Source: a virus
DNA: 39,690 nt
IMG/VR virus record: IMGVR_UViG_3300045988_167796
Span: 132,032-171,721 of that record
Direction: 5' to 3' (one strand)
Within the stretch, counting starts at the first letter, position 1; each line of letters begins with the position of its first letter. The notes beneath the pieces were generated by a model, which was given only the letters and a program-made list of their open reading frames with translations, searched no databases and had not been told where the DNA came from. Of the stretch, positions 11,978-36,769 are shown piece by piece. Made by a program: the position numbers and the translations under genes.

Positions 11978-11978
11978 T

Positions 11979-15590: not shown

Positions 15591-15594
15591 ATTT

Positions 15595-15668: not shown

Positions 15669-15681
15669 ATAATATTAATAA

Positions 15682-15754
15682 TGCAAGTGAAGAGGTTCGA
15701 ACTCTTGACTTACCGGTTAAAAGCCGGTTACTCTACCAACTGAGTTACACTTGC
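15682..15754 (-). tRNA. tRNA-Lys (anticodon UUU)
   Basis: Acceptor GCAAGTG/CACTTGC, D ACTC/GAGT, anticodon arm ACCGG-CUUUUAA-CCGGT, T-arm AAGAG-TTCGAAC-CTCTT. Confidence 0.8.
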
Positions 15755-17417: not shown

Positions 17418-20285
17418 TTATTCAGATGTTTGAAAAGCGTCACTTTTTTTATTACGATATTTTGATTGCCTTAATTTATGTAAATAATCCTTATGTATTT
17501 CCGAGCATCTATCACATCGTTTACTTCTCATATTTGTTGATTGAACATTAAAAACACATCCGCAATCTACGCATACCATTGATTTTTTTCCGTTTAATTT
17601 ATTTACTTCTTTTCCCCTACAAGATCTACATTTACCTCTATATAAAACCTCATCCGTTCTCTTTCCGCATTTTCTACATATATTTTTATAATCAACATTT
17701 TCACACAAATTATTGTATATTTGTTCTCCATATATGTACCATAATAGCTTCTTTTTCCTCGTAGATGGTTTTTTATATAAAAATGATACAAGCGAATTAA
17801 TTACTTTATCATCGTTTGGTTCTATTTTATTTAGATCAGATTTTACCTGCATACATACAGCATTTATATTGTTCTTATCCTTATTATCGTCTTCATCAAG
17901 TTTTATATTGTTACCATATTTCTTATTCCATCTGTCAAACACAGCGTTTACTTCATCATTATAATAGAAGTCATTTTTATCCTTTAAGAACAATTTATAA
18001 TCAACTTTATCAAGTCTTTTTATGTTTTTAAACTGTTTCTTATTATCTTTTATTTCGTTTACTATTTTATTAATAGTACTATCGTTTATAGGTTCAACCT
18101 GTTCTAACGATTTATCTTTTGCGTAATAAAAGAAATACGGGACCTTCTGATTACTATATCTTTTCAGAATCTGATCTACGTGTTGAGGTCTAGTAGGTTT
18201 AAATAACGTTTTTGCATAATCTATAGTAAAATTAGTTTCCATGCATAACCATCTTACTGCATTTAATGATTCCTGCGTAATGTTACCACTGTTCCATATC
18301 TTTGTAATATCGTTACTAATACCACCAATACGACCTCCAGTAAATGCTAATTTAAGACCTTTGAAGATGTTTTCACAGGTAATCATCTCTGCATTTGCCT
18401 TTTTCATCTCATAATACAAAGGATTAACACCTTGCATACATCTCTCAGCAATGTTAATAAGCTTTTCTTGTGCTAAAACAAGCAGCCTGTCTCCATCTAC
18501 ATCAAACTGTAATATTCTACTTATAGGATCATGAACACTTGTATATATAGCATCTGTTGTAAACCATTCATCTAATCTTGTGCACCTAAACTTCTTATTA
18601 CAAACATTTTTTCTAACCGCATGTTCAATATATAAATGAGGGGATCTCAGACAATCAAGTTTTTCTTTATTCTTATATAACCTACAAAATACTTCACCAT
18701 TTGCAAGAAGTCCTATTGGAGATTCTACTCCCATAAATAAACGCTCACAAAATGCATATAGATCAGGTACAACAAAAGTAAATTTGCCAGTAACGTCTAA
18801 CTTCGCACTTCTGTATTTTTTTATCATGCTATTTTTTAAATCCCTAAGATCTGCTTTGCTTGCCGGATCGTTTAATAGCTCTGGATATATTTTTAATGAT
18901 TTCTGGAACCAATCTTTTTTACTTTCGTCATCATCGTCTAAATCAACACCAAAAAAATCAAGAGCATTTTCCAAACTATCACTTATAGTTTCTATTTTCT
19001 TATTTGCAAATTTACACATATCTGAAATTTCTTTATCAGTTGCATCATATAATGTTTGAAGCATTTGATAGTTGATTTTTGCATTTGAAATAGAATCTTC
19101 TTCTATATTGCATATACCTGCTTCGCAATTATATTTCTTAAAATAATACTTATATTCATCCCAGCTGTCATAATACTTGTACATTTTTAACTGAGATTTA
19201 GTGAATATAACTTGAATATCATCATCAAAAATATCGTATTCTTTTCCCCATATATCCCGAATTTTTGACGAGCAGTTATATGTTTTTATAAACTTTTTAT
19301 AATCAAAACTTCCTAATAATCCTTTAATAAACGGCATACGCACCATGAAGTTCTTTTTACTTAACGATGGAAGAATCATACCGGATCCATCTGTATGTGT
19401 AATCGGTATATCCATGACTACATCAGGAGTTATTTCATAAGATTTATAATCAATATTATCAACCTTACAATTTACCATTGTCTCAAAATCATCTACTACA
19501 ATACTTCTATCTATATCAAATGGAACTCCAAGAACATCTTCCCATAAATCAGTAGCAGAGTTTGCAAGAGCAAGATAAGCCAGGAATTTGTTAATATTCA
19601 TTCCGCCTTTTTCATTTATTTTATCTACAGTAAGACCACACATAAGTTTTAATTTACAACTCTCATATTTTTCTTCCTCTACAAATACAGCTTTTTTTGT
19701 TCTTATTTGTCCTGCAGAAGAGGAGAAGTATACGTAATGCTTATTGTTATAATTAAATCCGTCTAAAATTAGATTTTCAGCTATATCATAGTAAAATATT
19801 TCAAGGACAAAAATACCGTATGTAAGCTCATTTGTTTTTATATCAAAGCTTCTGCTTAATGTGGATTCAAACATTGCAATAACATTTGAAATATTTATTT
19901 TTCTATCGCCGTCTTCTTGGTCAACATAAGAAAGATATCTTTCGTCCAAACACCTTATTATTTTATCTTTATGTGTTTTGTTATATTCAAGTATATTTTT
20001 CGAGTTATCAGAGATATATTTTTTCCATCTTTCTTCTTCTGATTTTATTTCTTTATCAAACCACAAAAAATATTCTTCATATTTACTTAATATACATCCA
20101 TCTTTTTTTTCACGTTTTAATTTTGAAACAGTTTTAGTAATGCTTTCTTTATAATGTAATTTCGTATCATATATTTTTTTGTGTATTTTTTTTAATCTTA
20201 TTAATCGTTTTCTTTCATTTTTTTCTTCCTTTGTTAAAAACGCGCTAGTGTCAACCTTGAATAAACTAATTTGTCTATCTAGCAT
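17418..20285 (-). CDS. large 955-aa protein with DxDGD motif (QFDVDGDRL) and C-terminal multi-Cys zinc cluster; candidate YonO-like single-subunit two-barrel RNA polymerase (alternative: primase-polymerase)
   Basis: Uninterrupted 955-codon ORF with SD; DxDGD is the catalytic signature of two-double-psi-beta-barrel RNAPs; function unverified. Confidence 0.3.
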   Translation of the reverse strand: MLDRQISLFKVDTSAFLTKEEKNERKRLIRLKKIHKKIYDTKLHYKESITKTVSKLKREKKDGCILSKYEEYFLWFDKEIKSEEERWKKYISDNSKNILEYNKTHKDKIIRCLDERYLSYVDQEDGDRKINISNVIAMFESTLSRSFDIKTNELTYGIFVLEIFYYDIAENLILDGFNYNNKHYVYFSSSAGQIRTKKAVFVEEEKYESCKLKLMCGLTVDKINEKGGMNINKFLAYLALANSATDLWEDVLGVPFDIDRSIVVDDFETMVNCKVDNIDYKSYEITPDVVMDIPITHTDGSGMILPSLSKKNFMVRMPFIKGLLGSFDYKKFIKTYNCSSKIRDIWGKEYDIFDDDIQVIFTKSQLKMYKYYDSWDEYKYYFKKYNCEAGICNIEEDSISNAKINYQMLQTLYDATDKEISDMCKFANKKIETISDSLENALDFFGVDLDDDDESKKDWFQKSLKIYPELLNDPASKADLRDLKNSMIKKYRSAKLDVTGKFTFVVPDLYAFCERLFMGVESPIGLLANGEVFCRLYKNKEKLDCLRSPHLYIEHAVRKNVCNKKFRCTRLDEWFTTDAIYTSVHDPISRILQFDVDGDRLLVLAQEKLINIAERCMQGVNPLYYEMKKANAEMITCENIFKGLKLAFTGGRIGGISNDITKIWNSGNITQESLNAVRWLCMETNFTIDYAKTLFKPTRPQHVDQILKRYSNQKVPYFFYYAKDKSLEQVEPINDSTINKIVNEIKDNKKQFKNIKRLDKVDYKLFLKDKNDFYYNDEVNAVFDRWNKKYGNNIKLDEDDNKDKNNINAVCMQVKSDLNKIEPNDDKVINSLVSFLYKKPSTRKKKLLWYIYGEQIYNNLCENVDYKNICRKCGKRTDEVLYRGKCRSCRGKEVNKLNGKKSMVCVDCGCVFNVQSTNMRSKRCDRCSEIHKDYLHKLRQSKYRNKKSDAFQTSE

Positions 20286-23501: not shown

Positions 23502-24197
23502 TTAATTATTCGTTCTTTCTATAATTTTCCTGTCAAGTTTTATAACTCTAACTGATGTGATCATACTCAAAAGTTCATCAATAGAATTAATCGCAACATC
23601 AATCTTTGAACCAGTACTATCGTAAAAATCTAAGCACAATTCATTATATTCATCTCTATAGAATCCATGAGATTCTTCATCCATCCATTCTTCAAACATC
23701 TCTTCAATGTTTTTTAATTCTTCATAAAATGATACGGCGTATCCTCCGTATGTTCTATATTCAGCTGTGAAATATCTGATATAATCATCATCTGCAACAA
23801 AAATAATTTCATATTCTATTTCATAATTAACATTCGTACATTTATCAACATATGTATTAATTACAGTAGGAATAGAAGAGCAGTGCCCTTTTACTCTATA
23901 CGGAATGTAATAATCAGTTACGTAATATGATTTATAAGTATCAATGTCTATTACATTATGTTCTTTTGTAATAAGATGCATATCATTACGAAGACGATCA
24001 AAAATATCTGTATTTCCGTTATCGCAATCAGCTTTAAAGAAAGATTTTACTTTTCCTGATTCGTTATAAATCCGTCCAACTTTATCAGCATATGCGTGAC
24101 CATTCCATTTATGAACAGTAATAGCAATTTCGTCATCTAAGATTCCTGTATATTCCGGAATATGCTCAATTGCTTCTAATTTAATTTTTTTACTCAT
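23502..24197 (-). CDS. hypothetical protein, 231 aa (start moved to ATG 24197 with AAGGAGAA SD)
   Basis: Internal ATG with strong SD; avoids overlap with upstream gene. Confidence 0.65.
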   Translation of the reverse strand: MSKKIKLEAIEHIPEYTGILDDEIAITVHKWNGHAYADKVGRIYNESGKVKSFFKADCDNGNTDIFDRLRNDMHLITKEHNVIDIDTYKSYYVTDYYIPYRVKGHCSSIPTVINTYVDKCTNVNYEIEYEIIFVADDDYIRYFTAEYRTYGGYAVSFYEELKNIEEMFEEWMDEESHGFYRDEYNELCLDFYDSTGSKIDVAINSIDELLSMITSVRVIKLDRKIIERTNN

Positions 24198-24250: not shown

Positions 24251-24433
24251 TTAAGAAAACCACTTAGGAACATCTCTATACGCATCTGCAATTTCACATA
24301 AATCCAATTCTTCTAACAAATCACATATAATAGAATCAGCATCTTCATGCTCACATTGATGTGTACATGTGCGTAGCAATTTTACATATTTATGTTCAAT
24401 TCCATATTTATTGTTTTCATCTAAAATAGCCAT
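24251..24433 (-). CDS. hypothetical protein, 60 aa
   Basis: Start overlaps stop of upstream gene (coupling). Confidence 0.45.
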   Translation of the reverse strand: MAILDENNKYGIEHKYVKLLRTCTHQCEHEDADSIICDLLEELDLCEIADAYRDVPKWFS

Positions 24434-24801
24434 TATAATTCTCCTTCAAATTCTTTCTTAAGTTCTTCATATAGCTTTCTTCGTTTTGTTTGTCCTTCTT
24501 TTTTCTTTGCTTCTGCAGCTTCTTTTTTTTTTTTTGCCAGTTCAATTATTCTAATCTGTTCATTTCGAATAATTCTTGCTTCATTTAAATAGTTTGTATC
24601 GCAGAATTTATCATAAGGAATAGTTATGTTATCAACGCAATCTCCTTCATTATCAATGATACTGATAATTAATCTACCACTATCTAATTCGTATTCTAAA
24701 TACGATCTATACAGCAAATCTAACTCTTCACAAATTTCACGACAACGATCATATATCTCATTATCTAATCGTTCATAAAAATTTAATTCAATTTCTGTCA
24801 T
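24433..24801 (-). CDS. hypothetical protein, 122 aa, Lys/Glu-rich C-terminus
   Basis: ORF with SD; degenerate copy of the 21-nt motif upstream. Confidence 0.65.
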   Translation of the reverse strand: MTEIELNFYERLDNEIYDRCREICEELDLLYRSYLEYELDSGRLIISIIDNEGDCVDNITIPYDKFCDTNYLNEARIIRNEQIRIIELAKKKKEAAEAKKKEGQTKRRKLYEELKKEFEGEL

Positions 24802-24825
24802 ATTGTAATGTTTTCTACTTTATTT

Positions 24826-25218
24826 TTAATATCTGATAATATGCACATCTAATCCGTATCTTTCTGCAATATCAATCATATTTTTAGTCCCTTTAGATTT
24901 TCCATCCCAGAAAGCAATCAGCATACCGTAACAATCATCTTCAGAATCATATTTTGCCATATCTGCATTTCTAATAGCTCCTGCACGTTTTCCGTATGCC
25001 GTCCAGTTAGCTGGGAAGCGTTTTATTGGAATATTATATAAAGCAGCAAATTGCTCTCCTAATCTATCTGCACCTTTGGCTGTTCCACTTATAATTTTTG
25101 TTTTTTCATGTATTGGGACATGCGGAGGAGAAATGAGATCGTATACAGTTGTACTAAGTAAATCATAATCTTTAAAATCTCTTCCTCCGGCAATAATCAC
25201 TCTTAACTCTTTACACAT
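24826..25218 (-). CDS. SLOG-superfamily (DUF2493/YspA-like) protein, 130 aa
   Basis: VIIAGGRDF ... GTAKGADRLGEQFA ... RNADM pattern typical of DUF2493/SLOG Rossmann-like proteins; AAGGAG SD. Confidence 0.5.
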   Translation of the reverse strand: MCKELRVIIAGGRDFKDYDLLSTTVYDLISPPHVPIHEKTKIISGTAKGADRLGEQFAALYNIPIKRFPANWTAYGKRAGAIRNADMAKYDSEDDCYGMLIAFWDGKSKGTKNMIDIAERYGLDVHIIRY

Positions 25219-25220
25219 TT

Positions 25221-26123
25221 TTATCTCCTTGCTTCGTACATTTCTTTAATAAGCTCTTTTACATCAGATTCAAATAGCTTGACTGCTAATTCATATAGTT
25301 CTGGGATCATTCCAAGTACTTTATCTACATAATCAAGTTTGTTTTTAAGTTTTGGACTATGATTACGGTTATAGCTTTCAAATCTTAAAGTAAGATTAAT
25401 ATGAAACTTATTTTCAAACTCCCTGTACAGAACACCCCATCTGTTTTCGAATTTACCGCCGTTATGACGCATTACTCTATTTAGAATCATTCTCTGATCA
25501 GCTACAGAGATTTCATCTGTGAATTTTTGAATGATATCCTGTTTATAATCCAAATCTGATTTCTGTTTAGTAATCGTATCCTGCTGTGTCCGGATCAATG
25601 TATTCTGCTCCTGGATTGTATGTAATGTAGTTCTAAATAAGATTTTCGTAGATTCATCTGCAAAAGGAAGATAAGTATTGATAAATACATCTTCATTATG
25701 TACATAGCCGCCTGTCTTACGGATCGTAGGAAGTACTTCTGCAGTTACCCAGTGTTTGAACTTCTTGGCGGAGGGGAGTTTGCTGCTGAAGATCAGTGAG
25801 TAAAGACCAGATTCGTTGATCCATGTAGGAAATTGTTTTCTTCCAATGCTGTCTGTAATAGATGGGGTAGCGTTTGGCGACCCCATAATTTTGTCACATT
25901 CTTCAACATGATTAGTAATAGCGTCTTTTGTATTCTTAAATCCTAACGCTTCTGCTACATCTTTCCCAACAAACCAAGGTTCATTATCTATGGTGAGGAC
26001 TCTTACTGATCCGAACTCAGGATTGGTGAAGATTGATGGAGTTGATGTGGTAGTGTTATTTGTATTAGTATTTGTAGTTGTGTTTGTAGATTCTTTCTTA
26101 TTATTTGTGTTTCTTTTCTTCAT
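25221..26123 (-). CDS. phage antirepressor, Bro-N domain + KilA-C/ORF6C-like C-terminal domain, 300 aa
   Basis: FGSVRVLTIDNEPWFVGKDVAEALGF..HVEE motif block of Bro-N; Thr/Asn-rich low-complexity N-terminus. Confidence 0.75.
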   Translation of the reverse strand: MKKRNTNNKKESTNTTTNTNTNNTTTSTPSIFTNPEFGSVRVLTIDNEPWFVGKDVAEALGFKNTKDAITNHVEECDKIMGSPNATPSITDSIGRKQFPTWINESGLYSLIFSSKLPSAKKFKHWVTAEVLPTIRKTGGYVHNEDVFINTYLPFADESTKILFRTTLHTIQEQNTLIRTQQDTITKQKSDLDYKQDIIQKFTDEISVADQRMILNRVMRHNGGKFENRWGVLYREFENKFHINLTLRFESYNRNHSPKLKNKLDYVDKVLGMIPELYELAVKLFESDVKELIKEMYEARR

Positions 26124-26147
26124 ATTTAATTCTCCTTGCTTTCTACA

Positions 26148-26169
26148 TTTTTAATATTACTCATTATAG
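26148..26169 (-). promoter_or_regulatory. copy of conserved motif CTATAATGAGTAATATTAAAAAT upstream of antirepressor gene
   Basis: TATAAT -10-like hexamer plus AATATT palindromic core, about 45 nt upstream of ATG 26123. Confidence 0.5.
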
Positions 26170-26170
26170 T

Positions 26171-26362
26171 TTAAAATAATTTACGTCCACATGTGGGACA
26201 TCTATATAGAACAAATTCGCTCTTAGGATCATCTTTTACTGCCAAACGGTAATTATTACCGGATACATCACATCGGATTAAAAGATTTCCCATACCAAGA
26301 GATTGTTCTAGCTTGTTGTTTACATTTTCATAATTTTTATAATTGCATGTACTACATGACAT
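26171..26362 (-). CDS. zinc-ribbon protein, 63 aa
   Basis: CSTC...CPTC; GAGGT SD. Confidence 0.55.
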   Translation of the reverse strand: MSCSTCNYKNYENVNNKLEQSLGMGNLLIRCDVSGNNYRLAVKDDPKSEFVLYRCPTCGRKLF

Positions 26363-26377
26363 TTGTTATTACCTCGC

Positions 26378-26400
26378 TTTTTTAATATTGCTCATTATAG
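26378..26400 (-). promoter_or_regulatory. copy of conserved motif CTATAATGAGCAATATTAAAAA upstream of zinc-ribbon gene
   Basis: Same 21-22 nt motif; ends 19 nt before ATG 26362; overlaps stop of HAD gene. Confidence 0.5.
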
Positions 26401-26970
26401 ATTATTATTTAATAAATATATTGCTTCTTTTACATTATCATCCTGTAATCCACCAGGGCGATTCCAGTAAGATGTATGGATCAAATTATTTATACCTAAT
26501 TTCCTATATGCAGTGTATCTGTAATCATCATCAAGAATTACATAATTTGAAATTTCACGATGTTGATCAAGATATACACGTATATCATATGGTCGGCCTT
26601 TTAAAGTTTCAGGCGTTTGATCATATATATGAAGGTTTTCTTCTGCAAGAGAGGAGAGAAGATATTTCCATTGTGGATGTTCTGGAATATCTGATAATGA
26701 TCTCCATGATGAACATAGAACTATTTTTGCACCTGTTTCTTCTATAATAGTGCGTAAACGTTTTGTTCGCACCGGATCTATCTCTGTATAAGATGTAGAA
26801 GTGTTTGGTTGTAGAGATGCCGGAATAATGTGATCCCCAGCACCGTATTCATGTGCAAAATAATAGTCTGAGTTCAAAACCCCATCTATATCTAGGAATA
26901 CACATTTTATTTTTTGCGTATTTTTGGTTTGGTCTGATATAAAGGGTGGTAAAGTCTGTAACGGTTCTAT
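26395..26970 (-). CDS. HAD-superfamily phosphatase/nucleotidase-like protein; N-terminus uncertain (no canonical start upstream of catalytic motif)
   Basis: Motif I VFLDIDGVL and motif II IVLCSSW; track start (TTG 26877) falls after motif I; only in-frame candidate is ATA 9 nt after GGAGG. Confidence 0.5.
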   Translation of the reverse strand: MEPLQTLPPFISDQTKNTQKIKCVFLDIDGVLNSDYYFAHEYGAGDHIIPASLQPNTSTSYTEIDPVRTKRLRTIIEETGAKIVLCSSWRSLSDIPEHPQWKYLLSSLAEENLHIYDQTPETLKGRPYDIRVYLDQHREISNYVILDDDYRYTAYRKLGINNLIHTSYWNRPGGLQDDNVKEAIYLLNNNL

Positions 26971-27064
26971 ATAGCCCCGCCTCCGTTCCTTTTTAGTTTA
27001 TTTTGCTTGTGTTTTAGTGCAGAATTATTAAAACGTATTAAATTGTATTCTTTATGCATTTTGC

Positions 27065-27087
27065 GTTTTTAATATTGCTTGTTATGG
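27065..27087 (-). promoter_or_regulatory. degenerate copy of conserved motif (CCATAACAAGCAATATTAAAAAC) upstream of HAD gene
   Basis: Shares AAGCAATATTAAAAA core. Confidence 0.35.
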
Positions 27088-27229
27088 AAAGAATTATAGC
27101 AATGCTAATGGTATTTGTCAAGCAAAAATTACAAAAATTGTGGCGATAAGCAGTCTGAAATTGATTGACACTTATGTAAACTTCCGAATTAAATATCGAG
27201 AATGAATAATTGAAGAGTGTTGATATGGA

Positions 27230-27320
27230 AATAGAGGTTGGGATTATAAAAATCGATTAAGGATGAGGAGGACGATTAAAGATTGTTATAACGATTTAAG
27301 CGATTTAGGATTGTTATGGA
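27230..27320. repeat. cluster of short direct repeats (GATTGTTAT x2; CGATTAAR x3)
   Basis: Seen directly in the strand-switch intergenic region. Confidence 0.4.
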
Positions 27321-27415
27321 AGGAAGTTAATATAAATATGATCTATTTTTTCAAGTTAGTGTGTGTATAGAACGGCTTTGCAGAATCACGGAAAAACAGA
27401 ACACCCGTTTGGTTT

Positions 27416-27443
27416 TTGTTAGCCCCCACTAACGTCCTATAAT
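27416..27443 (+). promoter_or_regulatory. sigma70-like promoter TTGTTA-16nt-TATAAT facing the rightward gene arm
   Basis: Consensus-like hexamers with 16-nt spacer; upstream of GC-rich structured element. Confidence 0.4.
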
Positions 27444-27482
27444 ACATATTAACGTACGATTAGACATATCTAACCATAAAAT

Positions 27483-27538
27483 ACCACAATATATAGTGTC
27501 GATACAGCCATAAAACACAATTAAACCACAATATATAG
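27483..27538 (+). repeat. two 14-bp direct repeats ACCACAATATATAG (iteron/operator-like) 28 nt apart
   Basis: Exact 14-mer duplicated at 27483 and 27525, each preceded by CCATAAAA. Confidence 0.5.
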
Positions 27539-27599
27539 AATGAACTTTTTGTATCATTTAATCTCGTTTTTCAACTTTTCCATAGTCTGTATAGTATAC

Positions 27600-27960
27600 T
27601 GATTACAAGCTAAAGGAAAGACGTTCTATCGCTTCCTTTAGCTGGTGGGATTGGAAGCCCACATGCATGAACGGTGTCCCCTGTCAAAGGGACTAGGGCT
27701 TGCCCCCGAAATGTCCCTCTTTGGACGTCCGGCTTAGGCTTCCGGCGTCTGCATCCTTGACAACAAAGAATGAATATCTACCACGCCCTTGCGGCGTGTA
27801 TGTAATCCTTGCGATTACCTATATTTATTCGGAATATTGGATTTCGTGCGCAAAATAGCCCACACTAATTTGATTCTGTATTAATTGTTTTTTCGGTATA
27901 GCCGTATGATTCCGGCATGATTCGGTGTTATACGGGCGTACCGAAACGGTATGACTAATA
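27600..27960 (+). ncRNA. candidate structured RNA / highly structured leader (GC-rich hairpin-dense island), identity unknown
   Basis: Seven or more stable hairpins incl. a 10-bp stem at 27609-27642, two hairpins with identical CCTTGCG loops (27782-27797, 27807-27822), nested structure 27892-27946; no ORF; downstream of sigma70-like promoter. Confidence 0.25.
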
Positions 27961-27981
27961 TCATACAAGGGGGTTGTTATT

Positions 27982-28929
27982 ATGACAACAACAACAATTA
28001 ATTATATCACAATCAAAACAGGCAAAATGGTAGAAAAGGATGAAGTAAAGTCTTTCAAAGAGCTTAAATTCATTGTACCTAGAAATGTCGTTTCTGTCGA
28101 TTATTTTCAGCTTGCCGTTCAATACTGGACTTTTAATCTGTATGACATGCAATTACAGGGAGATATCACGAAAAAACAGTACGTTCTTGAAAACATGCCG
28201 GAAGAAAACGAAATACAATCGACGTTAAAAGAGATAGCCGACAAGGAACTGGACGAAATTAAAAAACGTCATGAATTGTTTTCCGCAGAATACAATGCAT
28301 TTTCTAAATGCTTGCCGGACGGAATCATGGATATCATTCAAAACGATATTTTTGCAAAGATGTTTTCTTGCGTTAAGAATGATATCAGCGGTATATCTGG
28401 ACTTAAAAAAGAATATGATAAAAAAGGCAAGGTTTCATTTCCTACTATTCCAATAGCCGGAATATATGACCGGTGGACAGAAAACATTGTAAAATATACC
28501 GATGCATTATCGGATACATTTCATACCGATAAACCTATGCCTAAGCCGGAACGCGAAAAAAGGTATGATAAAATCCGCGAAGTATGCAACTATTACATGC
28601 CAAAAGTCGAAATTGACGGACTGTATAATCACATCAATTTCAACAAAATGACACAAAAAAATATCCTTGCATACTATGATGCTTCTGGCAAACTAAGCAA
28701 TGGTAAAAACGGCGGTTCTGTCCATACAAGAGTAAAAGCAACAAAATTACTTTATAATCTTTTCCACCAGATGCTTATTTGCTTAGGATGCGAAGAACCA
28801 AAAGAAGTAAAAGAGTTGTCTGCCGATACCGCCAATAATATGTCTATGCTTGCAGTAAATGAACTTCTTAATGCATCAAAACAGGCAGAAAATGAAAAAC
28901 CCGAAAAAACAGATATAGAATCAAAATAA
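27982..28929 (+). CDS. hypothetical protein, 315 aa
   Basis: AAGGGGG SD; followed by strong terminator. Confidence 0.75.
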   Translation: MTTTTINYITIKTGKMVEKDEVKSFKELKFIVPRNVVSVDYFQLAVQYWTFNLYDMQLQGDITKKQYVLENMPEENEIQSTLKEIADKELDEIKKRHELFSAEYNAFSKCLPDGIMDIIQNDIFAKMFSCVKNDISGISGLKKEYDKKGKVSFPTIPIAGIYDRWTENIVKYTDALSDTFHTDKPMPKPEREKRYDKIREVCNYYMPKVEIDGLYNHINFNKMTQKNILAYYDASGKLSNGKNGGSVHTRVKATKLLYNLFHQMLICLGCEEPKEVKELSADTANNMSMLAVNELLNASKQAENEKPEKTDIESK

Positions 28930-28940
28930 ATCCAATTTAA

Positions 28941-28972
28941 AAGCCCTGTCGGCAGACGGGGCTTTTTTATTG
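28941..28972 (+). terminator. rho-independent terminator
   Basis: AAGCCCTGTC-ggca-GACGGGGCTT hairpin + TTTTTTATT. Confidence 0.8.
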
Positions 28973-29006
28973 CCTAAATAATATGCAAAAAACAGGGGGA
29001 TGAAAA

Positions 29007-29588
29007 ATGCATAACGAAATGTATAAACCTTTTAAAATTGCCGCTGATTTTACTACGCATTATTTTAATACATGCGTTCCTAAAAATGCATCATATGGAC
29101 GTTTAACAAAAAATATCTATATTTTTATAGATAATTATTCTCAGTTTCGTCCTAATATGCAAGGAATTGATTCGATAACAATAAACGTATTAGACGCAAG
29201 AAAAGACAGTAATTTCCATAAATGTATCATAAAAAAATACATTAGAAATAGAAAAACTAATGAAATGGTACAAAATCCTACGTTTGAATTTTGCTATAAT
29301 TTTGTAGCAAAAAACAAATTATGGAATACAAAATGCGAAAATATTTTGAGATATAACCGTTCTGGTGCTCTGCCGTCTTACTATGTAAAACAGCGTGAAC
29401 CCAAATATAGAGCATATGGAGATTATTCCAAAAGCGTCGGTGTTAACGACGATATTAGATATAAAGAAATCACAGAAAATGCTCATTATGCATATGAACG
29501 TGCATCTATGTCTGCTGAAGGGACTATAGCGGCACAACGATTCGATATTGGTAATCGTTTAAAAAATGGTGTAAGATACGATGATTAA
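29007..29588 (+). CDS. hypothetical protein, 193 aa
   Basis: GGGGGA SD; followed by terminator. Confidence 0.7.
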   Translation: MHNEMYKPFKIAADFTTHYFNTCVPKNASYGRLTKNIYIFIDNYSQFRPNMQGIDSITINVLDARKDSNFHKCIIKKYIRNRKTNEMVQNPTFEFCYNFVAKNKLWNTKCENILRYNRSGALPSYYVKQREPKYRAYGDYSKSVGVNDDIRYKEITENAHYAYERASMSAEGTIAAQRFDIGNRLKNGVRYDD

Positions 29589-29592
29589 ATAT

Positions 29593-29628
29593 AAAAAAAA
29601 CATCTACAAAATAGTAGATGTTTTTTTT
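29593..29628 (+). terminator. rho-independent terminator (A-run/hairpin/T-run, potentially bidirectional)
   Basis: AAAAAAAACATCTAC-aaaata-GTAGATGTTTTTTTT. Confidence 0.75.
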
Positions 29629-29757
29629 ATGCAATTTTTATATATTTCCCCTTTATAACTATTAAACAACCATTTAATTTTTTTTATACAAAGAAATGAG
29701 GTGATATACATGCGGACTAAATAAAACAAACATAAGTCCGAGAAAAGAGGATTTATT

Positions 29758-29931
29758 ATGACAGGAAAAACAAAGGTTACCTTAAAAAATCATCTCATCA
29801 CAGATCCAAATACAGTTGTCTCAACGACTGAAAAAGTGTTTCAAAACCCTCAGTCCGCCCAGGCATTCGCAGATATTTGGAGTAAATTTAAAAACATCGA
29901 AATTATAATTCAAAAATGTGAAGATGATTAA
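29758..29931 (+). CDS. small hypothetical protein, 57 aa
   Basis: AAAGAGGA SD 7 nt before ATG; below track cutoff. Confidence 0.4.
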   Translation: MTGKTKVTLKNHLITDPNTVVSTTEKVFQNPQSAQAFADIWSKFKNIEIIIQKCEDD

Positions 29932-30120
29932 TTCAGAGTGGTCAAGCCCAACAACATGGGCTTGACTAATGAACTATGCTAGCAAATTTATGCTATACGT
30001 GCGCTTTTTATACGTATGTATGCATATGCATAACGGTCACAAGTCCGTATTTTGTTCATTTTTACGATTCACCCAATAATCAAACCAATTCAATCAAATA
30101 TAAACACAAGGAGAACCACC

Positions 30121-30513
30121 ATGAAAAACAATACAATTATCAAACAATTCAACATTTTCATCTCCCGTAATTACGATGGACTTTCCGCTCATACACTTTT
30201 TCAGACTCTCACATTTTCTTTTCCTAAAGAAATAGCGGCTCAATGGGTATACGTAAATATATTTCATGTATTTACAGAAAAGTACACTCCGCAGGATTTG
30301 GATATTGCACATTGTGTTGCTGATGTTATATTTAACAATCCAAATCTTTCTAACGATATTCATTATTTCCGCAGAGAACTCAAAGAGCTGAAATTCTGCA
30401 TAGAGTTTGGATATGCTTACGCCAACACTTCATATTTAAAAGAAAACGCTCTTGATATGTACCTCAAAAATGCAATCAGCCTGTGCGAATTTGAATTAAT
30501 CATGAAATCATAA
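30121..30513 (+). CDS. hypothetical protein, 130 aa (start at SD-preceded ATG 30121)
   Basis: AAGGAGAA SD; track start 30052 lacks SD. Confidence 0.65.
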   Translation: MKNNTIIKQFNIFISRNYDGLSAHTLFQTLTFSFPKEIAAQWVYVNIFHVFTEKYTPQDLDIAHCVADVIFNNPNLSNDIHYFRRELKELKFCIEFGYAYANTSYLKENALDMYLKNAISLCEFELIMKS

Positions 30514-30534
30514 AAACCCAAGGAGAACACAAAT

Positions 30535-31533
30535 ATGAAAATCTTAAACACAAATATCAGACTTGACGGAAATCACCTTTACAAACTTGAACTCACAGTA
30601 GACGAACTTCCTACTACAGATGAAACTGTACTTCTCGAAGACGAAGAGCAAAAATATGTTTACGGAGAAACACCGGACGGGTATGTTACATATGGATGTA
30701 TTGCTAAGAATGCACATCATGGGAATGAGCCTGGATATCGATGGTCTTCTCGTGCATCTGTATTTAACGGTATGTTCGGAAAACGTTGTATGGAAGTAGT
30801 GTTTATAGAGAAATATCGCTATGCAGGAGATATGACTATAGATGCAATTCTACCATTTCTTCCTGACGAATTCTATATTGTTGAACAGGTTGAAACTGAT
30901 AAACATGGGAATATTACAGAGATTACATACAGAATTTCTAATTATGATCACGAAAAAGAGAGACAGTGGTATTTCAAAGATATTACTTGTTCCGACGGCT
31001 CCAGACGTTACATCCGTAACCGTATCTTTAACAACAAACCTCTTAATCCAGATTTATACTCATTTATATCTGCATACAGACGTAACATTATGGATAACGA
31101 TATGTTAGAAAGAGTATGCAGAGATATTTCTGAATCCGGCAAGTACTCGCTTTGCGAACTGAATAAATTTGCTTCTTATATGGAAGAAAACTTTTCAACG
31201 ATTTGTTCTTTAAAGTTTTTTAATAATAGTAATGGCGGTATCACATTCTATTTAACAGTATCTACGCAAAATAATAATGATAATAAATACATTAAATATA
31301 ATTCTGAAGACAATACTTCAAACCAGTCACCAAATTACATCCCGTATCCGGATCAATTTCCTCATCTTACTAGACAGAGTATTGTTGAGACAATTTTAGA
31401 TATGTGGTTATCTAGTAAAGATATTGAATATATCAAAGAATACTGGCTGGGATTTTGGAAGGATCCTTTAAGATACAAAGATTCTGCAATTGCTAATATG
31501 ATTCGACAGGACGTCAGAGAGCGTATGATATAA
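30535..31533 (+). CDS. hypothetical protein, 332 aa
   Basis: AAGGAGAA SD. Confidence 0.75.
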   Translation: MKILNTNIRLDGNHLYKLELTVDELPTTDETVLLEDEEQKYVYGETPDGYVTYGCIAKNAHHGNEPGYRWSSRASVFNGMFGKRCMEVVFIEKYRYAGDMTIDAILPFLPDEFYIVEQVETDKHGNITEITYRISNYDHEKERQWYFKDITCSDGSRRYIRNRIFNNKPLNPDLYSFISAYRRNIMDNDMLERVCRDISESGKYSLCELNKFASYMEENFSTICSLKFFNNSNGGITFYLTVSTQNNNDNKYIKYNSEDNTSNQSPNYIPYPDQFPHLTRQSIVETILDMWLSSKDIEYIKEYWLGFWKDPLRYKDSAIANMIRQDVRERMI

Positions 31534-31736
31534 ATTCCTATGAATTTCCTTTACTGACCGCCAATAAAATATCGAAATTTTCAGTAACGGAATTTTTCAA
31601 AACGGGGTACCCCATTAAAGGCAGTAAGCGAACGCATCAGTATAATACACTGGTGCGTTTTATAGTGTCTTTAATAGATACAAAAGCAAATAACAAAGCA
31701 AACACAAATAAAAAATCACAGAAAGGAACCACAACT

Positions 31737-32006
31737 ATGGCATTCAAAAAATCAACTAACACAAACAAACCTGCAACAGAACCAACTTATGAAGTACTTG
31801 AAGAATGCGGGACTATATCATCCAACGGAAGAGGATGGGAAACAAAACTCCGTTATATCTCATGGAACGGTAACGAACCTAAGTATGATTTACGTTCCTG
31901 GAAAGAAGATGAGAACGGAGAAAAATGCACAAAGGGAATTACGCTCACAGGCGAAGAACTTGAAACACTGTTAAATATCTTAAAGAAAATGGAAAGCGAG
32001 GAATAA
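31737..32006 (+). CDS. PC4/YdbC-like ssDNA-binding protein, 89 aa
   Basis: GWETKLRYISWNGNEPKYDLRSWKEDENGEKCTKGITLTGEE matches the bacterial/phage PC4-like (YdbC) core; AAAGGAA SD. Confidence 0.5.
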   Translation: MAFKKSTNTNKPATEPTYEVLEECGTISSNGRGWETKLRYISWNGNEPKYDLRSWKEDENGEKCTKGITLTGEELETLLNILKKMESEE

Positions 32007-32008
32007 TC

Positions 32009-32251
32009 ATGCCAAAAACATTCAAGGTAAACCAGAAGTATTTCTGGGAATCATGGTTTACCGGCGGGACTATGTTCTACACAGTTTCTTCCAGAACAGA
32101 AAACAAAGTTGCGCTTTCATGTGTAGATTATGAAGCAGACGGTATACATAAACGTACAGAAGTATACGATATTGAAACAGACGAAAACGGAAACGAACGG
32201 ATCCTTATTGTTGAATACAAAGGAGAAAAAGGATATATCTACGCAGAATAA
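32009..32251 (+). CDS. hypothetical protein, 80 aa
   Basis: GAGGAA SD. Confidence 0.65.
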   Translation: MPKTFKVNQKYFWESWFTGGTMFYTVSSRTENKVALSCVDYEADGIHKRTEVYDIETDENGNERILIVEYKGEKGYIYAE

Positions 32252-32275
32252 CGAATAAAGCAGGAGGACATAATT

Positions 32276-32707
32276 ATGAAACGTAAACTTATCGCAACAT
32301 TAACAGCAATATTACTTACAACATCGGTATGTGCATGTGGACAGGTACATGCTTGCGAAATTGAAACAGAATCAATGGAATTCACAGATTCATGTTCGCT
32401 CATAGCATTTACGGACGGAACCGGATATTATTTGGACCAATTAGATTATGATAAAATCTATCCTCTAACCGGGATTGTAACACATATTGAATATGGAGCT
32501 ATTCCAGATCATGATCTTATATTTATTACATGCGCGAACGGAAACGAATTTTCTTTTTATGCACCGGAAACAGACTGTTGGGAAGAAGAAGATATTGCTT
32601 CTTGTATTATGAATTCTAAAGGCACATCTATCGTTTATGATGATGAAGTTATTTTAGCTCATTATGCAGGTGGAATAAAACATTTTGAAAGAATAATATC
32701 TGATTAA
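32276..32707 (+). CDS. secreted/lipoprotein-like protein, 143 aa
   Basis: N-terminal signal peptide MKRKLIATLTAILLTTSVCAC; AGGAGGA SD. Confidence 0.65.
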   Translation: MKRKLIATLTAILLTTSVCACGQVHACEIETESMEFTDSCSLIAFTDGTGYYLDQLDYDKIYPLTGIVTHIEYGAIPDHDLIFITCANGNEFSFYAPETDCWEEEDIASCIMNSKGTSIVYDDEVILAHYAGGIKHFERIISD

Positions 32708-32720
32708 GGAAGTGATACTT

Positions 32721-32927
32721 ATGGCAAATAAATATTTTACCATGCAAGAATTGCAGTCAATGCAATTTTACGAATTGCCAAACAGAATTTACAAGGCAAT
32801 CCTCAATGACATAAAAAATACTTTAGGTATTCTGACAAATAGAATAATAGAAATAATTAATCATGCAAATGTGATGCAACTCGATCAATACTGTAATATT
32901 TGGAAATACATTTCTATTATTGCATAA
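32721..32927 (+). CDS. hypothetical protein, 68 aa
   Basis: AAGGAAGTG SD before ATG 32721. Confidence 0.5.
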   Translation: MANKYFTMQELQSMQFYELPNRIYKAILNDIKNTLGILTNRIIEIINHANVMQLDQYCNIWKYISIIA

Positions 32928-32945
32928 TAAACGGGGTGATTTAGA

Positions 32946-33227
32946 ATGAAGCGCAAAAACAGAATAAGATTATATGCAAAGGCAACTCTGTTCGGAGCTG
33001 CCTTTTTTATTGCAGTAGGTATTGTAGGAAAGATAGACAGCAACACAGAAAATGGATATACCACAACAATAGCATCTGCCTACGGAAACAGGATCTACAC
33101 AAACGACGGCAACATTTATGAAGTAGACCATGATATTTCTGATGGTTCCGAAAAGAAAGTAATTGTTACATTTGATTCTCGTGGCACATCTGATCCAACG
33201 GATGACGTCATTGTAGATATATATTGA
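32946..33227 (+). CDS. small membrane protein, 93 aa
   Basis: One N-terminal TM helix (LFGAAFFIAVGIVG); SD present. Confidence 0.6.
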   Translation: MKRKNRIRLYAKATLFGAAFFIAVGIVGKIDSNTENGYTTTIASAYGNRIYTNDGNIYEVDHDISDGSEKKVIVTFDSRGTSDPTDDVIVDIY

Positions 33228-33284
33228 TTGTATAATTCAATCAAAACACAATTGAATACAGCAAGAAGCAAAGGAGTGAGAAAC

Positions 33285-33488
33285 ATGTTAAAAGAACCAG
33301 AACCGAAACAACAGGTACACAATTGGACGAAAGAAATCCGCGCGCTTTTAAGGGACTTCAAAGTTCCAAATGTAATTATTAATCAGATTATTTATGACAC
33401 TAAAAAGGAAGCAAAATCTTCTGATGACGCATTTATTCTATATAACAAAGCATGGAGAAAAGCTTATGATGTTATAATGGAGATGTAA
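33285..33488 (+). CDS. hypothetical protein, 67 aa (start at SD-preceded ATG 33285)
   Basis: AAAGGAGTGAG SD; track TTG start lacks SD. Confidence 0.5.
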   Translation: MLKEPEPKQQVHNWTKEIRALLRDFKVPNVIINQIIYDTKKEAKSSDDAFILYNKAWRKAYDVIMEM

Positions 33489-33553
33489 GTAGATGGAACC
33501 ATACAACAGTGCAAACAAATAAGTATAAATAATTATAAGAGAGGTTGATTATC

Positions 33554-34594
33554 ATGAAAAATAATAAAATTGAATATATCGAAACAAGAAAAGACAACAG
33601 AGTAAAAGCTTTATCTTTACCAGCAGCAGGAGAGAAAACACCTAGCACATTATACAACGAAACAATCAAAAACAAATTCGTCATTGACGGAATTACATAT
33701 TGTGTACTCCCATTTGACTTGATTGTATTTGATGATTCATACCAGCGCAACAAGTCAGCTGACAAGGCAAAAATCAACGAGCTTGCTAGGAACTGGGATG
33801 ATAACCTGATGGATCTTCCGCTTGTATCAGAACATCCGGAAGAAGGATTGTTCTACGGAATTGACTGCTACCATCGAATTGAAGCTTTGAAAATCAACGG
33901 AAGAACATCTGTACTTTGCAAGATTGCAAATGGACTTTCAAATGTCCCAACAGAAAGAAGTGTACAGGAAGCTGAATTATTCAGCAAGCAGGGACCATGT
34001 GAAAACCTTACAGTCGGCCAGAAACACAAAGCAAACGTTAAGCGTGGTATCCGTAAATATGTTGTGCTTGAAGAATGTATTCAGGATCGTAAACTTTTTG
34101 TCGATCCTAGATATTACCGCAACATGCCTGATGAAGAAAAAGCAAAGTATGCAGACTGGAAAGTGCTGTCTGGATATACGGCCGCATTGCATATTGCAGG
34201 TCTTACAAACGGAAAAGAACTTCTTAATTCTGTACTTGATGTTATTGAAGCAGTAAATTGGAGGAATGCAGTAGGTGGTTATAAATCTTTAATTATCAAA
34301 ACGATCGGTACAATTCTGAATTTACATGAAAACAGTGATTTCGCAAAAATGGCAATGATTAGATATTTCGGTCCAATGGAACCGGAAGAATTCCTTGCAA
34401 GAGCATATGAAAAATATCCGGCAAGAAAAGAGAAAGAGCGTGTAGATATCCTTCTTGAAGAAGAAGTTTCCAAAAGAATGGGATTCGCTCCTATGTATAC
34501 AGGCGGAGGTCTGACTGGAGGTATTGCAACACAGAGAGCAGTGAAAAAGGCAAAAGCAAAGTCAAAAAAAGAAGAAAATGCTTCAAATTTCTGA
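33554..34594 (+). CDS. ParB-like nuclease domain protein, 346 aa
   Basis: ParB/Srx core motif GIDCYHRIEAL (DGxHR-type) in N-terminal half; AGAGAGG SD. Confidence 0.6.
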   Translation: MKNNKIEYIETRKDNRVKALSLPAAGEKTPSTLYNETIKNKFVIDGITYCVLPFDLIVFDDSYQRNKSADKAKINELARNWDDNLMDLPLVSEHPEEGLFYGIDCYHRIEALKINGRTSVLCKIANGLSNVPTERSVQEAELFSKQGPCENLTVGQKHKANVKRGIRKYVVLEECIQDRKLFVDPRYYRNMPDEEKAKYADWKVLSGYTAALHIAGLTNGKELLNSVLDVIEAVNWRNAVGGYKSLIIKTIGTILNLHENSDFAKMAMIRYFGPMEPEEFLARAYEKYPARKEKERVDILLEEEVSKRMGFAPMYTGGGLTGGIATQRAVKKAKAKSKKEENASNF

Positions 34595-34616
34595 CTATAA
34601 TAAATAATATTAAAAA
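34595..34616 (+). promoter_or_regulatory. plus-strand copy of conserved motif CTATAATAAATAATATTAAAAA
   Basis: Same TATAAT-N4-AATATTAAAAA architecture as minus-strand copies. Confidence 0.45.
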
Positions 34617-34627
34617 CAAAGAAACTA

Positions 34628-34656
34628 TTGCAAAATATATATGTTTGTGATATATT
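34628..34656 (+). promoter_or_regulatory. sigma70-like promoter TTGCAA-17nt-TATATT
   Basis: Consensus spacing; followed by tandem CAAATGTTC repeats (34664-34690) and gene at 34713. Confidence 0.4.
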
Positions 34657-34712
34657 AATACAAACAAATGTTCCGAACAAATGTTCACAAAAATAGAAAG
34701 GAAATTAATATT

Positions 34713-34952
34713 ATGACTATAACTTATATTTATCAGAAACCAGGTGAAACATGTAAAATCTGCGGAGGAAATAAACCGCTAATGCTGTACATTACCTACA
34801 AAGATATTCCAGGATGTCATCCGGAAATTACAATTAACGGCTCTGAAAACCCGTTCCCGTTTAAGAAGTTTACTGTCAGTAAGCACGCAACAGATCTTAA
34901 CAAATGGCTTCTTGAAAAAGGATGGGTAGAAATCGGTCACGTTTACAATTAA
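34713..34952 (+). CDS. hypothetical protein, 79 aa (C-x2-C motif)
   Basis: AAAGGAAA SD before ATG 34713. Confidence 0.6.
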   Translation: MTITYIYQKPGETCKICGGNKPLMLYITYKDIPGCHPEITINGSENPFPFKKFTVSKHATDLNKWLLEKGWVEIGHVYN

Positions 34953-34990
34953 ATATGAAGCATGATAAATAATATTAAATAGTAACAACG

Positions 34991-35063
34991 CTGTGCCACA
35001 ATCCAATTGAACGGTATAACCTCAAGTCGAAGGTACGTTTTTTCAGAAGGGAACGTGGCACAG
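34991..35063. repeat. large imperfect inverted repeat CTGTGCCAC ... GTGGCACAG enclosing inner ACGTT/AACGT stem
   Basis: Seen directly; immediately upstream of TATAAT at 35075. Confidence 0.5.
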
Positions 35064-35197
35064 TATATCTGATAGTATAATCAAACATTTATTTTCTATT
35101 ACTCATTTAAAAGGCAGCATGAAATCTAGGGCTGCCGCCTCCAATAAAATAAGTGTTTGGTTATGCTATTAGAGCATAAGAAACGGAGGAAAACACA

Positions 35198-35518
35198 ATG
35201 AAACCAGAAAAATACTTTGTAACAAAAGAAGGAACTATTGTAAACGAATATAATATTAAGATGGCAGCTTTGATCGTACACAACATGCATCTTGACACAG
35301 ATGAACAACTGTATGCATATATCAACGATCATACGGAAGGAATCCTGTTTGAGAGTTCTTCGCCTACTATTGAAGACTTTTTAAAAAATTATCAATATGT
35401 TGCAGCTATTAGATTCTATTATAATGCACATAGAGACGAAGGAATGCTTCTCCAGGATGCAAGAAAATATGTAAACTCTGTAAGAGAAAAAATGATAAAG
35501 GCAGGTGAACTTCATTGA
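35198..35518 (+). CDS. hypothetical protein, 106 aa
   Basis: ACGGAGGAAAA SD. Confidence 0.7.
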   Translation: MKPEKYFVTKEGTIVNEYNIKMAALIVHNMHLDTDEQLYAYINDHTEGILFESSSPTIEDFLKNYQYVAAIRFYYNAHRDEGMLLQDARKYVNSVREKMIKAGELH

Positions 35519-35976
35519 TCCCTAAATACAGAATGGAAACTAGAAATTCGAATCTAGTTCTCGTAAGAGAAAAAAAATATAACACAAATTTTTGTTGTAA
35601 AAACCCTAAAGATGTAGTAAAGTTCTGCATCAACAACCTCAAACTTAGATATGCTCCAGAAGAATATGTATATGTAATTGCTTTAAATACACCAGGAGAC
35701 ATCATTGGGTTATTTGAAGTTTCTCACGGATGCATCAATGCATCAATCTGTTCTCCAAGAGAAATTTTTATCAGGCTTCTTTTATGCGGAGCAGCACAAT
35801 TTATCTGTGTACACAATCATCCATCTGGGAACACAATTCCTAGTAATAATGATAAAAATGTATTCAATCATTTATGTCAATCCGGTCTAATGTTAAATCT
35901 TCCTATGGCAGATTATATTATTGTTGGAAGAAATGAAACTGAATATACATCTTTTAAAGAAAGAGGTGATTTATAA
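35515..35976 (+). CDS. RadC-like JAB/MPN domain protein, 153 aa (TTG start)
   Basis: JAMM-like signature HNHPSGNTIPSNND with upstream EVSH; AGGTGAA SD. Confidence 0.7.
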   Translation: MIPKYRMETRNSNLVLVREKKYNTNFCCKNPKDVVKFCINNLKLRYAPEEYVYVIALNTPGDIIGLFEVSHGCINASICSPREIFIRLLLCGAAQFICVHNHPSGNTIPSNNDKNVFNHLCQSGLMLNLPMADYIIVGRNETEYTSFKERGDL

Positions 35977-36173
35977 TGCAGAAATGCAACATTGAAATAG
36001 TAACAGCTCACAACGGTGCAGAAGTTATCATTCTACGTAAAACAGAATATATTCATACAAAACTGGATGATATAAGGTCAGACTGGCGTGAGCAGGAACG
36101 TAAAAGAAGAGAGATAAATAATAAATCAAAAATAATAGATTTGTTCGATAAGATTAAAAATTGGTGTGCATAA
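35976..36173 (+). CDS. hypothetical protein, 65 aa
   Basis: Start overlaps previous stop (TAATG); GAGGTGA SD. Confidence 0.5.
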   Translation: MQKCNIEIVTAHNGAEVIILRKTEYIHTKLDDIRSDWREQERKRREINNKSKIIDLFDKIKNWCA

Positions 36174-36190
36174 CATATTACATCTATAAA

Positions 36191-36211
36191 CTATAATGAA
36201 TAATATTAAAA
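36191..36211 (+). promoter_or_regulatory. plus-strand copy of conserved motif CTATAATGAATAATATTAAAA
   Basis: Runs directly into SD AGGAGAG of gene at 36224. Confidence 0.5.
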
Positions 36212-36223: not shown

Positions 36224-36769
36224 ATGTTAAAAACAAACGAAGCAATCAACGTATTAAAAAACATGAATGAGGTACTCGAAAACATTTATATTGGTTTAAT
36301 GCCAAAAAGCAAAGCATCTCTATTAGAAACTAAACCGGCTCCATACGGAATCGATGATATTGTGCAGTATATGTACATCAAATGCGTTGAATCTTGCATC
36401 ATAATTCCAAATGGAGGATACGGTATTAATACAGATATCCTGTGGGATACAGCATTTAAAAATACAATCAAAGAATCCGACGAATTTAATTTTCTGGGAG
36501 AATTTTCAGTTGTTACAAATAATGCAAAATTATATGGAGCTTCTTCTATTATCAATGCAAAGCTTATGCGGGATATCTATGCAAGGGAGCACACAAATAA
36601 ATTTGTTTTACTTCCATCATCTGTACATGAAGTTCTTCTCCGTTCTGTTTTTGTTAAACCATCAGAAGATGATATGGAAGAATACAATACAATTGTAAAA
36701 GAAGTGAACGCTCAAAAAGTAAGCGAAAACGAAAGGCTTTCAGATCATGCATATTACATTGAGATTTAA
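36224..36769 (+). CDS. hypothetical protein, 181 aa
   Basis: AAAGGAGAGAAAA SD. Confidence 0.75.
   Translation: MLKTNEAINVLKNMNEVLENIYIGLMPKSKASLLETKPAPYGIDDIVQYMYIKCVESCIIIPNGGYGINTDILWDTAFKNTIKESDEFNFLGEFSVVTNNAKLYGASSIINAKLMRDIYAREHTNKFVLLPSSVHEVLLRSVFVKPSEDDMEEYNTIVKEVNAQKVSENERLSDHAYYIEI

Follow-up and report, generated by a model that had tools for sequence, protein, structure and literature searches.

A repeated 21-nt motif ahead of early genes in a phage encoding a YonO-type RNA polymerase: a candidate operator set

A 21-nt motif recurs just ahead of genes in a 39,690-nt stretch of viral DNA, and the question is which protein reads it and whether it is read to start transcription or to prevent it. 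The stretch, called the window here, comprises the last 39,690 nt of a 171,722-nt metagenome contig (IMG/VR record IMGVR_UViG_3300045988_167796). It was read together with the 10 kb to its left, about 50 kb of the contig in all. The original prediction had proposed either the binding site of a dedicated regulator or a promoter for a phage-encoded polymerase. The analysis described below upholds the regulator half of this proposal and goes against the polymerase half. From sequence comparisons we hold, with moderate confidence, that the copies of the motif form a set of operators which would silence early genes through a putative phage regulator, in the manner of the SPBRE of phage SPbeta and the stoperators of mycobacteriophage L5, and which in this phage are fused to a -10 box.

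The gene at 17418-20285, which had been guessed to encode an RNA polymerase, is indeed a homologue of yonO of SPbeta (Table 1). The gene order yonO-yonN-...-yonJ-yonG-terminase-portal is as in SPbeta; YonN is HU-like, and homologues of YonD and YonB are present too. By its YonO homologue and the gene order of its late operon, the phage is classed from sequence as an uncultured SPbeta-like phage. The leftward genes begin at about 27.1 kb and the rightward ones at about 28.0 kb, and yonO lies downstream of motif copies A to D in the same leftward block.

The motif itself is real. When the window was searched for CTATAATGARYAATATTAAAA with up to three mismatches, five matches were found as compared to 0.07 expected from 100 shuffles, none of which reached five. 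The layout of the motif is TATAAT, 4 nt and then AATATTAAAA. The claim of a perfect TATAAT holds for four of the five copies, in which it reads CTATAAT, and fails for copy C, which has CATAAC. A position weight matrix (PWM) built from the five strong copies (A, B, C, E and F) gives these copies 26-30 bits, scores that are circular because they belong to the training sites. The next best site in the window scores 12.7 bits; the best score in shuffled sequence is 12.8 bits on average and 18.5 bits at most. At least six copies had been listed. Five of them stand as strong copies, and the sixth, placed at 24815-24838, corresponds to the doubtful copy D, which is not among the top PWM matches and is statistically unsupported. 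A possible half-site at 27199-27212 was rejected, as its 12/14 matches are within chance expectation. The exact motif gave seven single-copy matches in IMG/VR; these lie on unrelated AT-rich contigs with no extra degenerate copies and were treated as chance. YonO relatives of 41-74% identity (L012-L024) did not have the motif.

Table 1. Positions in the window of the motif copies, the neighbouring promoters and the polymerase gene (PWM scores of copies A and B are those of training sites)
Feature	Sequence	Position	Strand	Remarks
Motif copy A	CTATAATGAGTAATATTAAAA	26149-26169	-	0 mismatches; PWM 29.5 bits
Motif copy B	CTATAATGAGCAATATTAAAA	26380-26400	-	0 mismatches; PWM 30.0 bits
Motif copy C	CCATAACAAGCAATATTAAAA	27067-27087	-	3 mismatches
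Motif copy E	CTATAATAAATAATATTAAAA	34595-34615	+	1 mismatch
Motif copy F	CTATAATGAATAATATTAAAA	36191-36211	+	0 mismatches
Weak copy G	GCATGATAAATAATATTAAAT	34960-34980	+	PWM 12.7 bits, not significant alone
Doubtful copy D	GCATATTATCAGATATTAAAA	24824-24844	-	5' of the 122-amino-acid gene 24433-24801; only the 9-mer ATATTAAAA kept
Copy of the type found in relatives	ATATTGGTATTAAAA	24221-24235	-	5' of gene 23502-24197; aligns with the copy at 6858(-) of relative L026, same core ATATTGGTATTAAA
Leftward early promoter P_L	TTGACA-17-TATAAT with TG extension	27093-27121	-	12/12 consensus
Rightward promoter-like sequence	TTGTTA-16-TATAAT	27416-27443	+	heads a ~540-nt leader and the orphan 315-amino-acid gene; no motif copy
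YonO-type single-subunit RNA polymerase gene		17418-20285	-	~45% identical to SPbeta YonO; DVDGD motif

All five strong copies lie in short intergenic gaps and are sense to the downstream gene, the orientation that had been proposed for them. Copy B overlaps the stop codon of a HAD-family gene, and 17 nt separate its end from the ATG of a 63-amino-acid gene (26171-26362). Copy A starts 1 nt past the stop codon of this small gene, with 25 nt between its end and the ATG of a Bro-N gene (25221-26123). On the rightward side, copy E starts directly past the TGA of a 349-amino-acid gene, and the likely ATG at 34713 follows 97 nt after its end. Copy F adjoins the Shine-Dalgarno sequence GGAGAG, and the ATG of a DUF5688 gene (36224-36769) comes 12 nt after the end of the copy. 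Measured from the end of the motif to the start codon, the distances are 12, 17, 25, 52-97 and ~190 nt, a spread that does not agree with the 20-100 nt stated earlier. The late and structural genes present a different picture, as neither positions 1-24000 of the window nor the adjoining 10 kb of structural genes on its left, ~34 kb together, contained a copy. A hairpin at 26183-26201, upstream of copy A, was considered as a terminator and rejected; it lies inside coding sequence, over a CxxC motif.

The promoters beside the motif give a first indication of its function. P_L is the only perfect TTGACA-17-TATAAT between 20 and 39.7 kb, and it heads the operon that ends with yonO. Copy C starts 5 nt past the -10 box of P_L and spans about -1 to +20 of the transcript which, judged by location, would be the position of an operator. 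Copies A, B and E show no -35 hexamer 16-18 nt upstream of TATAAT (at most 2/6 against TTGACA). Copy F has a weak one, ATAACA (4/6, with a 16-nt spacer), and is the only motif copy among the 60 promoter-scan sites displayed. The TG extension is absent from all copies.

It could be that the motif is itself a class of promoter, consisting of a -10 box and a downstream block and used by the host RNA polymerase together with a phage specificity factor (sigma-like or an activator), or used as a -10-only promoter, with no repressor involved. In this way each small gene cassette would have a start of its own. The perfect CTATAAT in four of the five copies, all of them sense, fits such a promoter, and the motif resembles sigma-A/sigma-70 early promoters in the TATAAT of these four copies, in the AT-rich DNA ahead of it and in its nearness to the Shine-Dalgarno sequence. 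It differs from them in ten further invariant bases past the -10 box, and its hexamer is not kept in close relatives. Moreover, copies A, B and E have neither a -35 hexamer nor a TG extension, copy F has only 4/6 of the former, and copy C stands directly past a complete promoter, where a second one is not needed.

Comparison with related phages carries most of the argument. Close relatives were reached via an orphan 315-amino-acid protein of the window; these are L026/L027, a 169.8-kb scaffold, and L029. The early proteins of L026 and L029 are mostly 65-90% identical to those of the window and YonO is 92% identical, yet the window motif is absent from both. The sites homologous to copies A, C, E, F and G carry in its place a 15-mer, ATATTGATATTAAAT, of which two further copies lie elsewhere. 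The site of copy A reads ATATTGATATTAAAT in L026 and L029, and so does the site of copy F, where it adjoins the same Shine-Dalgarno sequence; the site of copy E reads ATATTGAAATTAAAA. Weak copy G, which had not been listed earlier and lies directly 3' of gene 34668-34952 and 5' of a conserved RNA-like stem-loop, aligns with the relatives' own motif copy, ACATTGATATTAAAA/G. Alignment of the copy C region shows that the promoter is conserved, that the motif type is switched and that a 5-nt indel is present. P_L is kept 12/12 in L026 (9217-9189) and in L029. In L026 the motif starts 15 nt past the -10 box of P_L, and in both relatives a second, inverted copy lies just upstream of the -35 box, 64 bp from the first. 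The TATAAT of the motif is not kept at the homologous sites (CATATT, AATATT or ACATTG), whereas the TTGACA-17-TATAAT of P_L is. The two motif types have the 3' half ATATTAAA(A/T) in common and differ in the 5' half and in spacing. A copy of the relatives' type is also present in the window itself (Table 1).

A third motif type, TAAACTARTYAAAATAATAA, was found in the phages L032 and L033, whose YonO is 72-75% identical, with nine strong copies in L033. The frame TAAACTA-N5-AATAATA is common to this type and to window copies A and F. A copy directly follows a TTGACA-17-TAAAGT promoter in L032. The TTGACA-17-TAAAGT at 6029-6057 of L033 is flanked by two copies 66-67 bp apart, and the TTGCAA-17-TATAAT at 2354-2326 of the same phage is likewise flanked by two copies 66-67 bp apart, the downstream one being antisense. 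One copy in L026 has no gene ahead of it for ~750 nt. At the seven sites that L026 and L029 share, their 15-mers are identical to 99%, as compared to 83% and 62% for the 20-nt flanks. Taken together, the three motif types and this difference in conservation mean that the element is under selection and that its sequence is re-specified lineage by lineage. The variable motif beside constant host-type promoters, the L026 copy with no gene ahead and the antisense copy in L033 point to a DNA-binding factor encoded by the phage.

The same comparison bears on the promoter class from both sides. Where two phages have different genes upstream, the motif stays together with the Shine-Dalgarno sequence and the gene that follow it, and a lineage-specific sequence fits a phage-specific factor. 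The elements of SPbeta and of the phage Perkons, described below, also embed TATAAT. On the other hand, L026 and L029 swap TATAAT for CATATT or AATATT and keep true -10 boxes elsewhere, and the counterparts of copy C in L026, L032 and L033 also stand directly past a complete promoter. The antisense copy in L033, which opposes the transcription that it flanks, and the L026 copy with no gene for ~750 nt are also difficult to explain as promoters. A promoter class without a repressor is in our opinion rather unlikely as an account of the whole set, and copies A, B, E and F may nevertheless act as promoters, perhaps alongside a function as operators.

A more specific form of this idea is that the motif is the promoter of the YonO polymerase. 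A yonO homologue is present in the window, and a conserved element of 21 nt fits the size of promoters of single-subunit polymerases (T7-type, ~23 bp), which it resembles in length, in conservation and in having a phage polymerase gene nearby. In addition, the promoter sequence of YonO has not yet been established for SPbeta (PMC5467207). However, the YonO of SPbeta initiates at one site only, upstream of yonK, and its transcription is confined to 37 late genes that form one operon (PMC5467207), while in the phage studied here the late and structural region (1-24000 of the window and the 10 kb to its left) has no copy and all copies are at early genes, some of them ahead of yonO and the others in the early block that is read rightward. 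Since the copies precede yonO in its own leftward block, the motif must be read before YonO exists. Nor is the motif conserved with the polymerase, as the YonO of L026 is 92% identical and the motif there is different. YonO is not the enzyme that reads the motif, and we give the YonO promoter almost no credence.

The motif could also act in mRNA, as an AU-rich site in the 5' untranslated region for a translational repressor or a processing nuclease of the phage. All window copies are sense, a start codon lies 12-25 nt past the end of three of them and one adjoins a Shine-Dalgarno sequence, as would be expected of such a site. This explanation is improbable all the same. The copies stand anywhere from 12 to ~190 nt ahead of the start codon; copies in the relatives lie upstream of a -35 box and are not transcribed from that promoter, and one copy is antisense. 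The motif would be AU-only in RNA and has no predicted structure, and its SPbeta counterpart has been shown to be a DNA site (PMC10516654).

Gene content between the window and L026 differs in places bounded by motif copies. The 63-amino-acid gene between copies B and A is absent from L026, and L026 has an extra 182-amino-acid gene just before its own copy F (both in the region 17714-18290). This suggests that cassettes are exchanged by recombination at the motif repeats. It is a further step to suppose that the repeats are mainly recombination joints of mobile gene cassettes, comparable to T4-type promoter-stem-loop cassettes, with no dedicated regulator. The gene gains and losses bounded by motif copies would fit this. 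It leaves unexplained the copy at the start site of P_L, the flanking copies 64-67 bp apart, the switch of motif type throughout the genome and the conservation of the 15-mer (99%) over that of its flanks (62-83%). Shuffling of cassettes is to be expected as a by-product wherever a repeat is dispersed. Recombination as the main function appears very improbable.

An operator set, the reading that we prefer, has a well studied precedent. The SPBRE of SPbeta was first predicted in 1999, and in 2023 it was shown by chromatin affinity precipitation sequencing (ChAP-seq), electrophoretic mobility shift assays and lacZ fusions to be bound by the master repressor MrpR in about ten SPbeta early promoter regions (PMC10516654). 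Derived here from SPBc2 as ACAAAWAATATGTATA, the SPBRE gave 13 matches with at most two mismatches in that genome; all 11 with at most one mismatch and one of the two weaker matches point in the direction of the downstream gene. TAGACA-17-TATAAT-like promoters contain five of the matches, three adjoin GGAGG, and the yonX promoter is flanked by two that stand 64 bp apart. The phage of the window and its relatives show this layout. Both phages are of the same type, encode YonO and have a syntenic late operon. The copies are asymmetric and dispersed; they occur only between early genes, in the orientation of the gene that follows, and they overlap a -10 box, follow a full promoter or adjoin a Shine-Dalgarno sequence. 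A pair flanking a promoter is separated by 64 bp at SPbeta yonX and at P_L of L026, and by 66-67 bp in L033; no such pair was seen in the window itself.

A second case was found in the Psychrobacillus phage Perkons (L035). It encodes an MrpR homologue (31% identity, E value 2e-39) in a yopP-Q-R-like operon, and its first 45 kb contain 16 copies of ATATTATAATTAAG, of which 14 are sense and several adjoin a ribosome-binding site. This sequence, which is unannotated in the record, is probably the SPBRE equivalent of Perkons.

The stoperators of mycobacteriophage L5 and of Cluster A phages provide another comparison. They are asymmetric, intergenic and oriented, one of them lies at the early promoter, and they co-vary with the repressor (PMC9283540, PMC6550527). 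The motif shares with them the many asymmetric sites in short gaps and in one orientation (the antisense copy in L033 being the exception), the single site at an early lytic promoter and a consensus that shifts in step among related phages, which for stoperators corresponds to immunity groups. The differences are that stoperators belong to another phage group and host, are 13-14 bp long and GC-rich, number ~30 per genome and have no -10 box. Their repressor is a known helix-turn-helix (HTH) protein and is only putative here, and the window copies are confined to the early region that was sampled.

The operator set would then work as follows. A phage-encoded, sequence-specific regulator, most likely a repressor of early lytic genes, would bind the asymmetric 21-bp site. 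At P_L the bound copy C would block initiation or promoter escape. At the heads of gene cassettes, where a copy lies past the stop codon of one gene and ahead of the ribosome-binding site of the next, the regulator could occlude a weak built-in -10-only promoter; alternatively, the bound protein could block read-through by RNA polymerase in the manner of stoperators. The motif system would thereby be the functional counterpart of the SPBRE and MrpR of SPbeta. It is from the precedents and from the arrangement of the sites that we infer binding and repression.

Several observations weigh against an operator set. For four of the five copies no full promoter that they might repress can be recognised, and these four could equally be factor-dependent promoters. 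The consensus CTATAATGARYAATATTAAAA differs from the SPBRE (ACAAAWAATATGTATA), with only the core AATAAT(A)T in common, and P_L in the window has only one flanking copy. A de novo repeat search in the more distant YonO phages L012, L016, L024, L013 and L030 gave only AT-rich noise. The search for a binding protein in the window also did not favour it. The MrpR families PF22822 and PF22823 had no match among the window open reading frames (ORFs) scanned, and no HTH protein or repressor was recognised among ~50 window ORFs with Pfam and PHROGs, the matches being Bro-N, a PC4-like protein and a weak ParB-like match. An integrase, which a temperate lifestyle would lead one to expect, was not seen in the 50 kb read.

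Other searches for the protein had a similar outcome. Homologues of MrpR formed 15 clusters, none of them from the contig of the window; BLAST of window ORFs against SPbeta gave no YopR, and arbitrium genes were not seen in the 50 kb, unlike in SPbeta. The 315-amino-acid protein beside the divergent promoters had no sequence match in the PDB, and its AlphaFold model (pLDDT 53) gave only meaningless Foldseek matches. This protein and the 349-amino-acid protein had no match when used as queries in IMG/VR, and comparison of protein identities between the window, L026 and L029 revealed no clear co-varying factor.

A broader and more tentative proposal, which we hold with low confidence, is that the clade of YonO phages shares a mode of early silencing. 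It would combine paired operators ~64 bp apart around sigma-A promoters with copies at cassette heads. Its specificity would be rewritten fast between sister phages by half-site changes and a 5-bp change in spacing, and in lineages of the gut or Clostridia type it would use a regulator other than MrpR, possibly one of the orphan proteins beside the divergent promoters. If the operator reading is true, control of lysogeny or of early genes in the style of SPBRE and MrpR would reach beyond Bacillus SPbeta into a large, uncultured group of low-GC phages. Natural material on how the specificity of operator and repressor, and hence superinfection immunity, is rewritten would then be at hand in the three motif types that occupy homologous sites. 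The comparison also removes a tempting wrong candidate for the YonO promoter. No new principle is implied, since dispersed asymmetric operators are known from SPbeta and mycobacteriophage L5.

It should be noted that YonO-like polymerases are numerous. With the protein at 17418-20285 as query, the protein database gave 4030 clusters at E <= 1e-50, many of them on contigs of 100-210 kb; YonO phages are a large and mostly uncultured group. A megablast search with 12 kb against GenBank phages gave no match, and neither did the YonO query against GTDB genomes.

Additional features were observed around the motif copies and the divergent promoters. The leader of the rightward unit (27416-27981, +) contains a GC-rich block at 27590-27830 and has 80% column identity with L026 and L029. 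The orphan 315-amino-acid protein that it precedes (27982-28929) belongs to a family of only four protein clusters. Just past the rightward promoter, CCACAATATATAG occurs as a direct repeat at 27484-27496 and 27526-27538 (+), and as an inverted pair in L026; it may be a second operator, for another regulator. Directly past weak copy G is the stem-loop at 34988-35066 (+), with 24 predicted pairs, four of which show compensatory changes among the window, L026 and L029. It is followed by the conserved TGATAGTATAAT and then by gene 35198-35518, and may be an unclassified non-coding RNA or leader of the phage. Rfam had no match to either of these two structured intergenic regions, the rightward leader and the stem-loop. 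Between copy E and the start codon at 34713 a direct repeat of two units of ACAAATGTTC lies at 34664-34686 (+) and is partly kept in L026 and L029. In more distant relatives, ATATTTGYCTTTTAGGGGARAC was found at L033 12941, L032 12948 and L014 3654, ~45-75 nt past the yonO stop codon, with a motif copy immediately upstream. The window lacks this sequence, which in the lineages concerned might serve as a late promoter or an RNA element.

The late block has features of its own. The gene of the terminase large subunit (5765-8881, -) is split by an intein with a homing endonuclease domain (Hom_end/LAGLIDADG). Seven tRNA genes (Thr, Asn, Tyr, Ser, Gly, Met, Lys) lie at 10203-15754 (-), with an HNH endonuclease gene (14709-15287) among them, and genes of a beta-CASP/MBL nuclease and of ClpP adjoin the tRNA genes.

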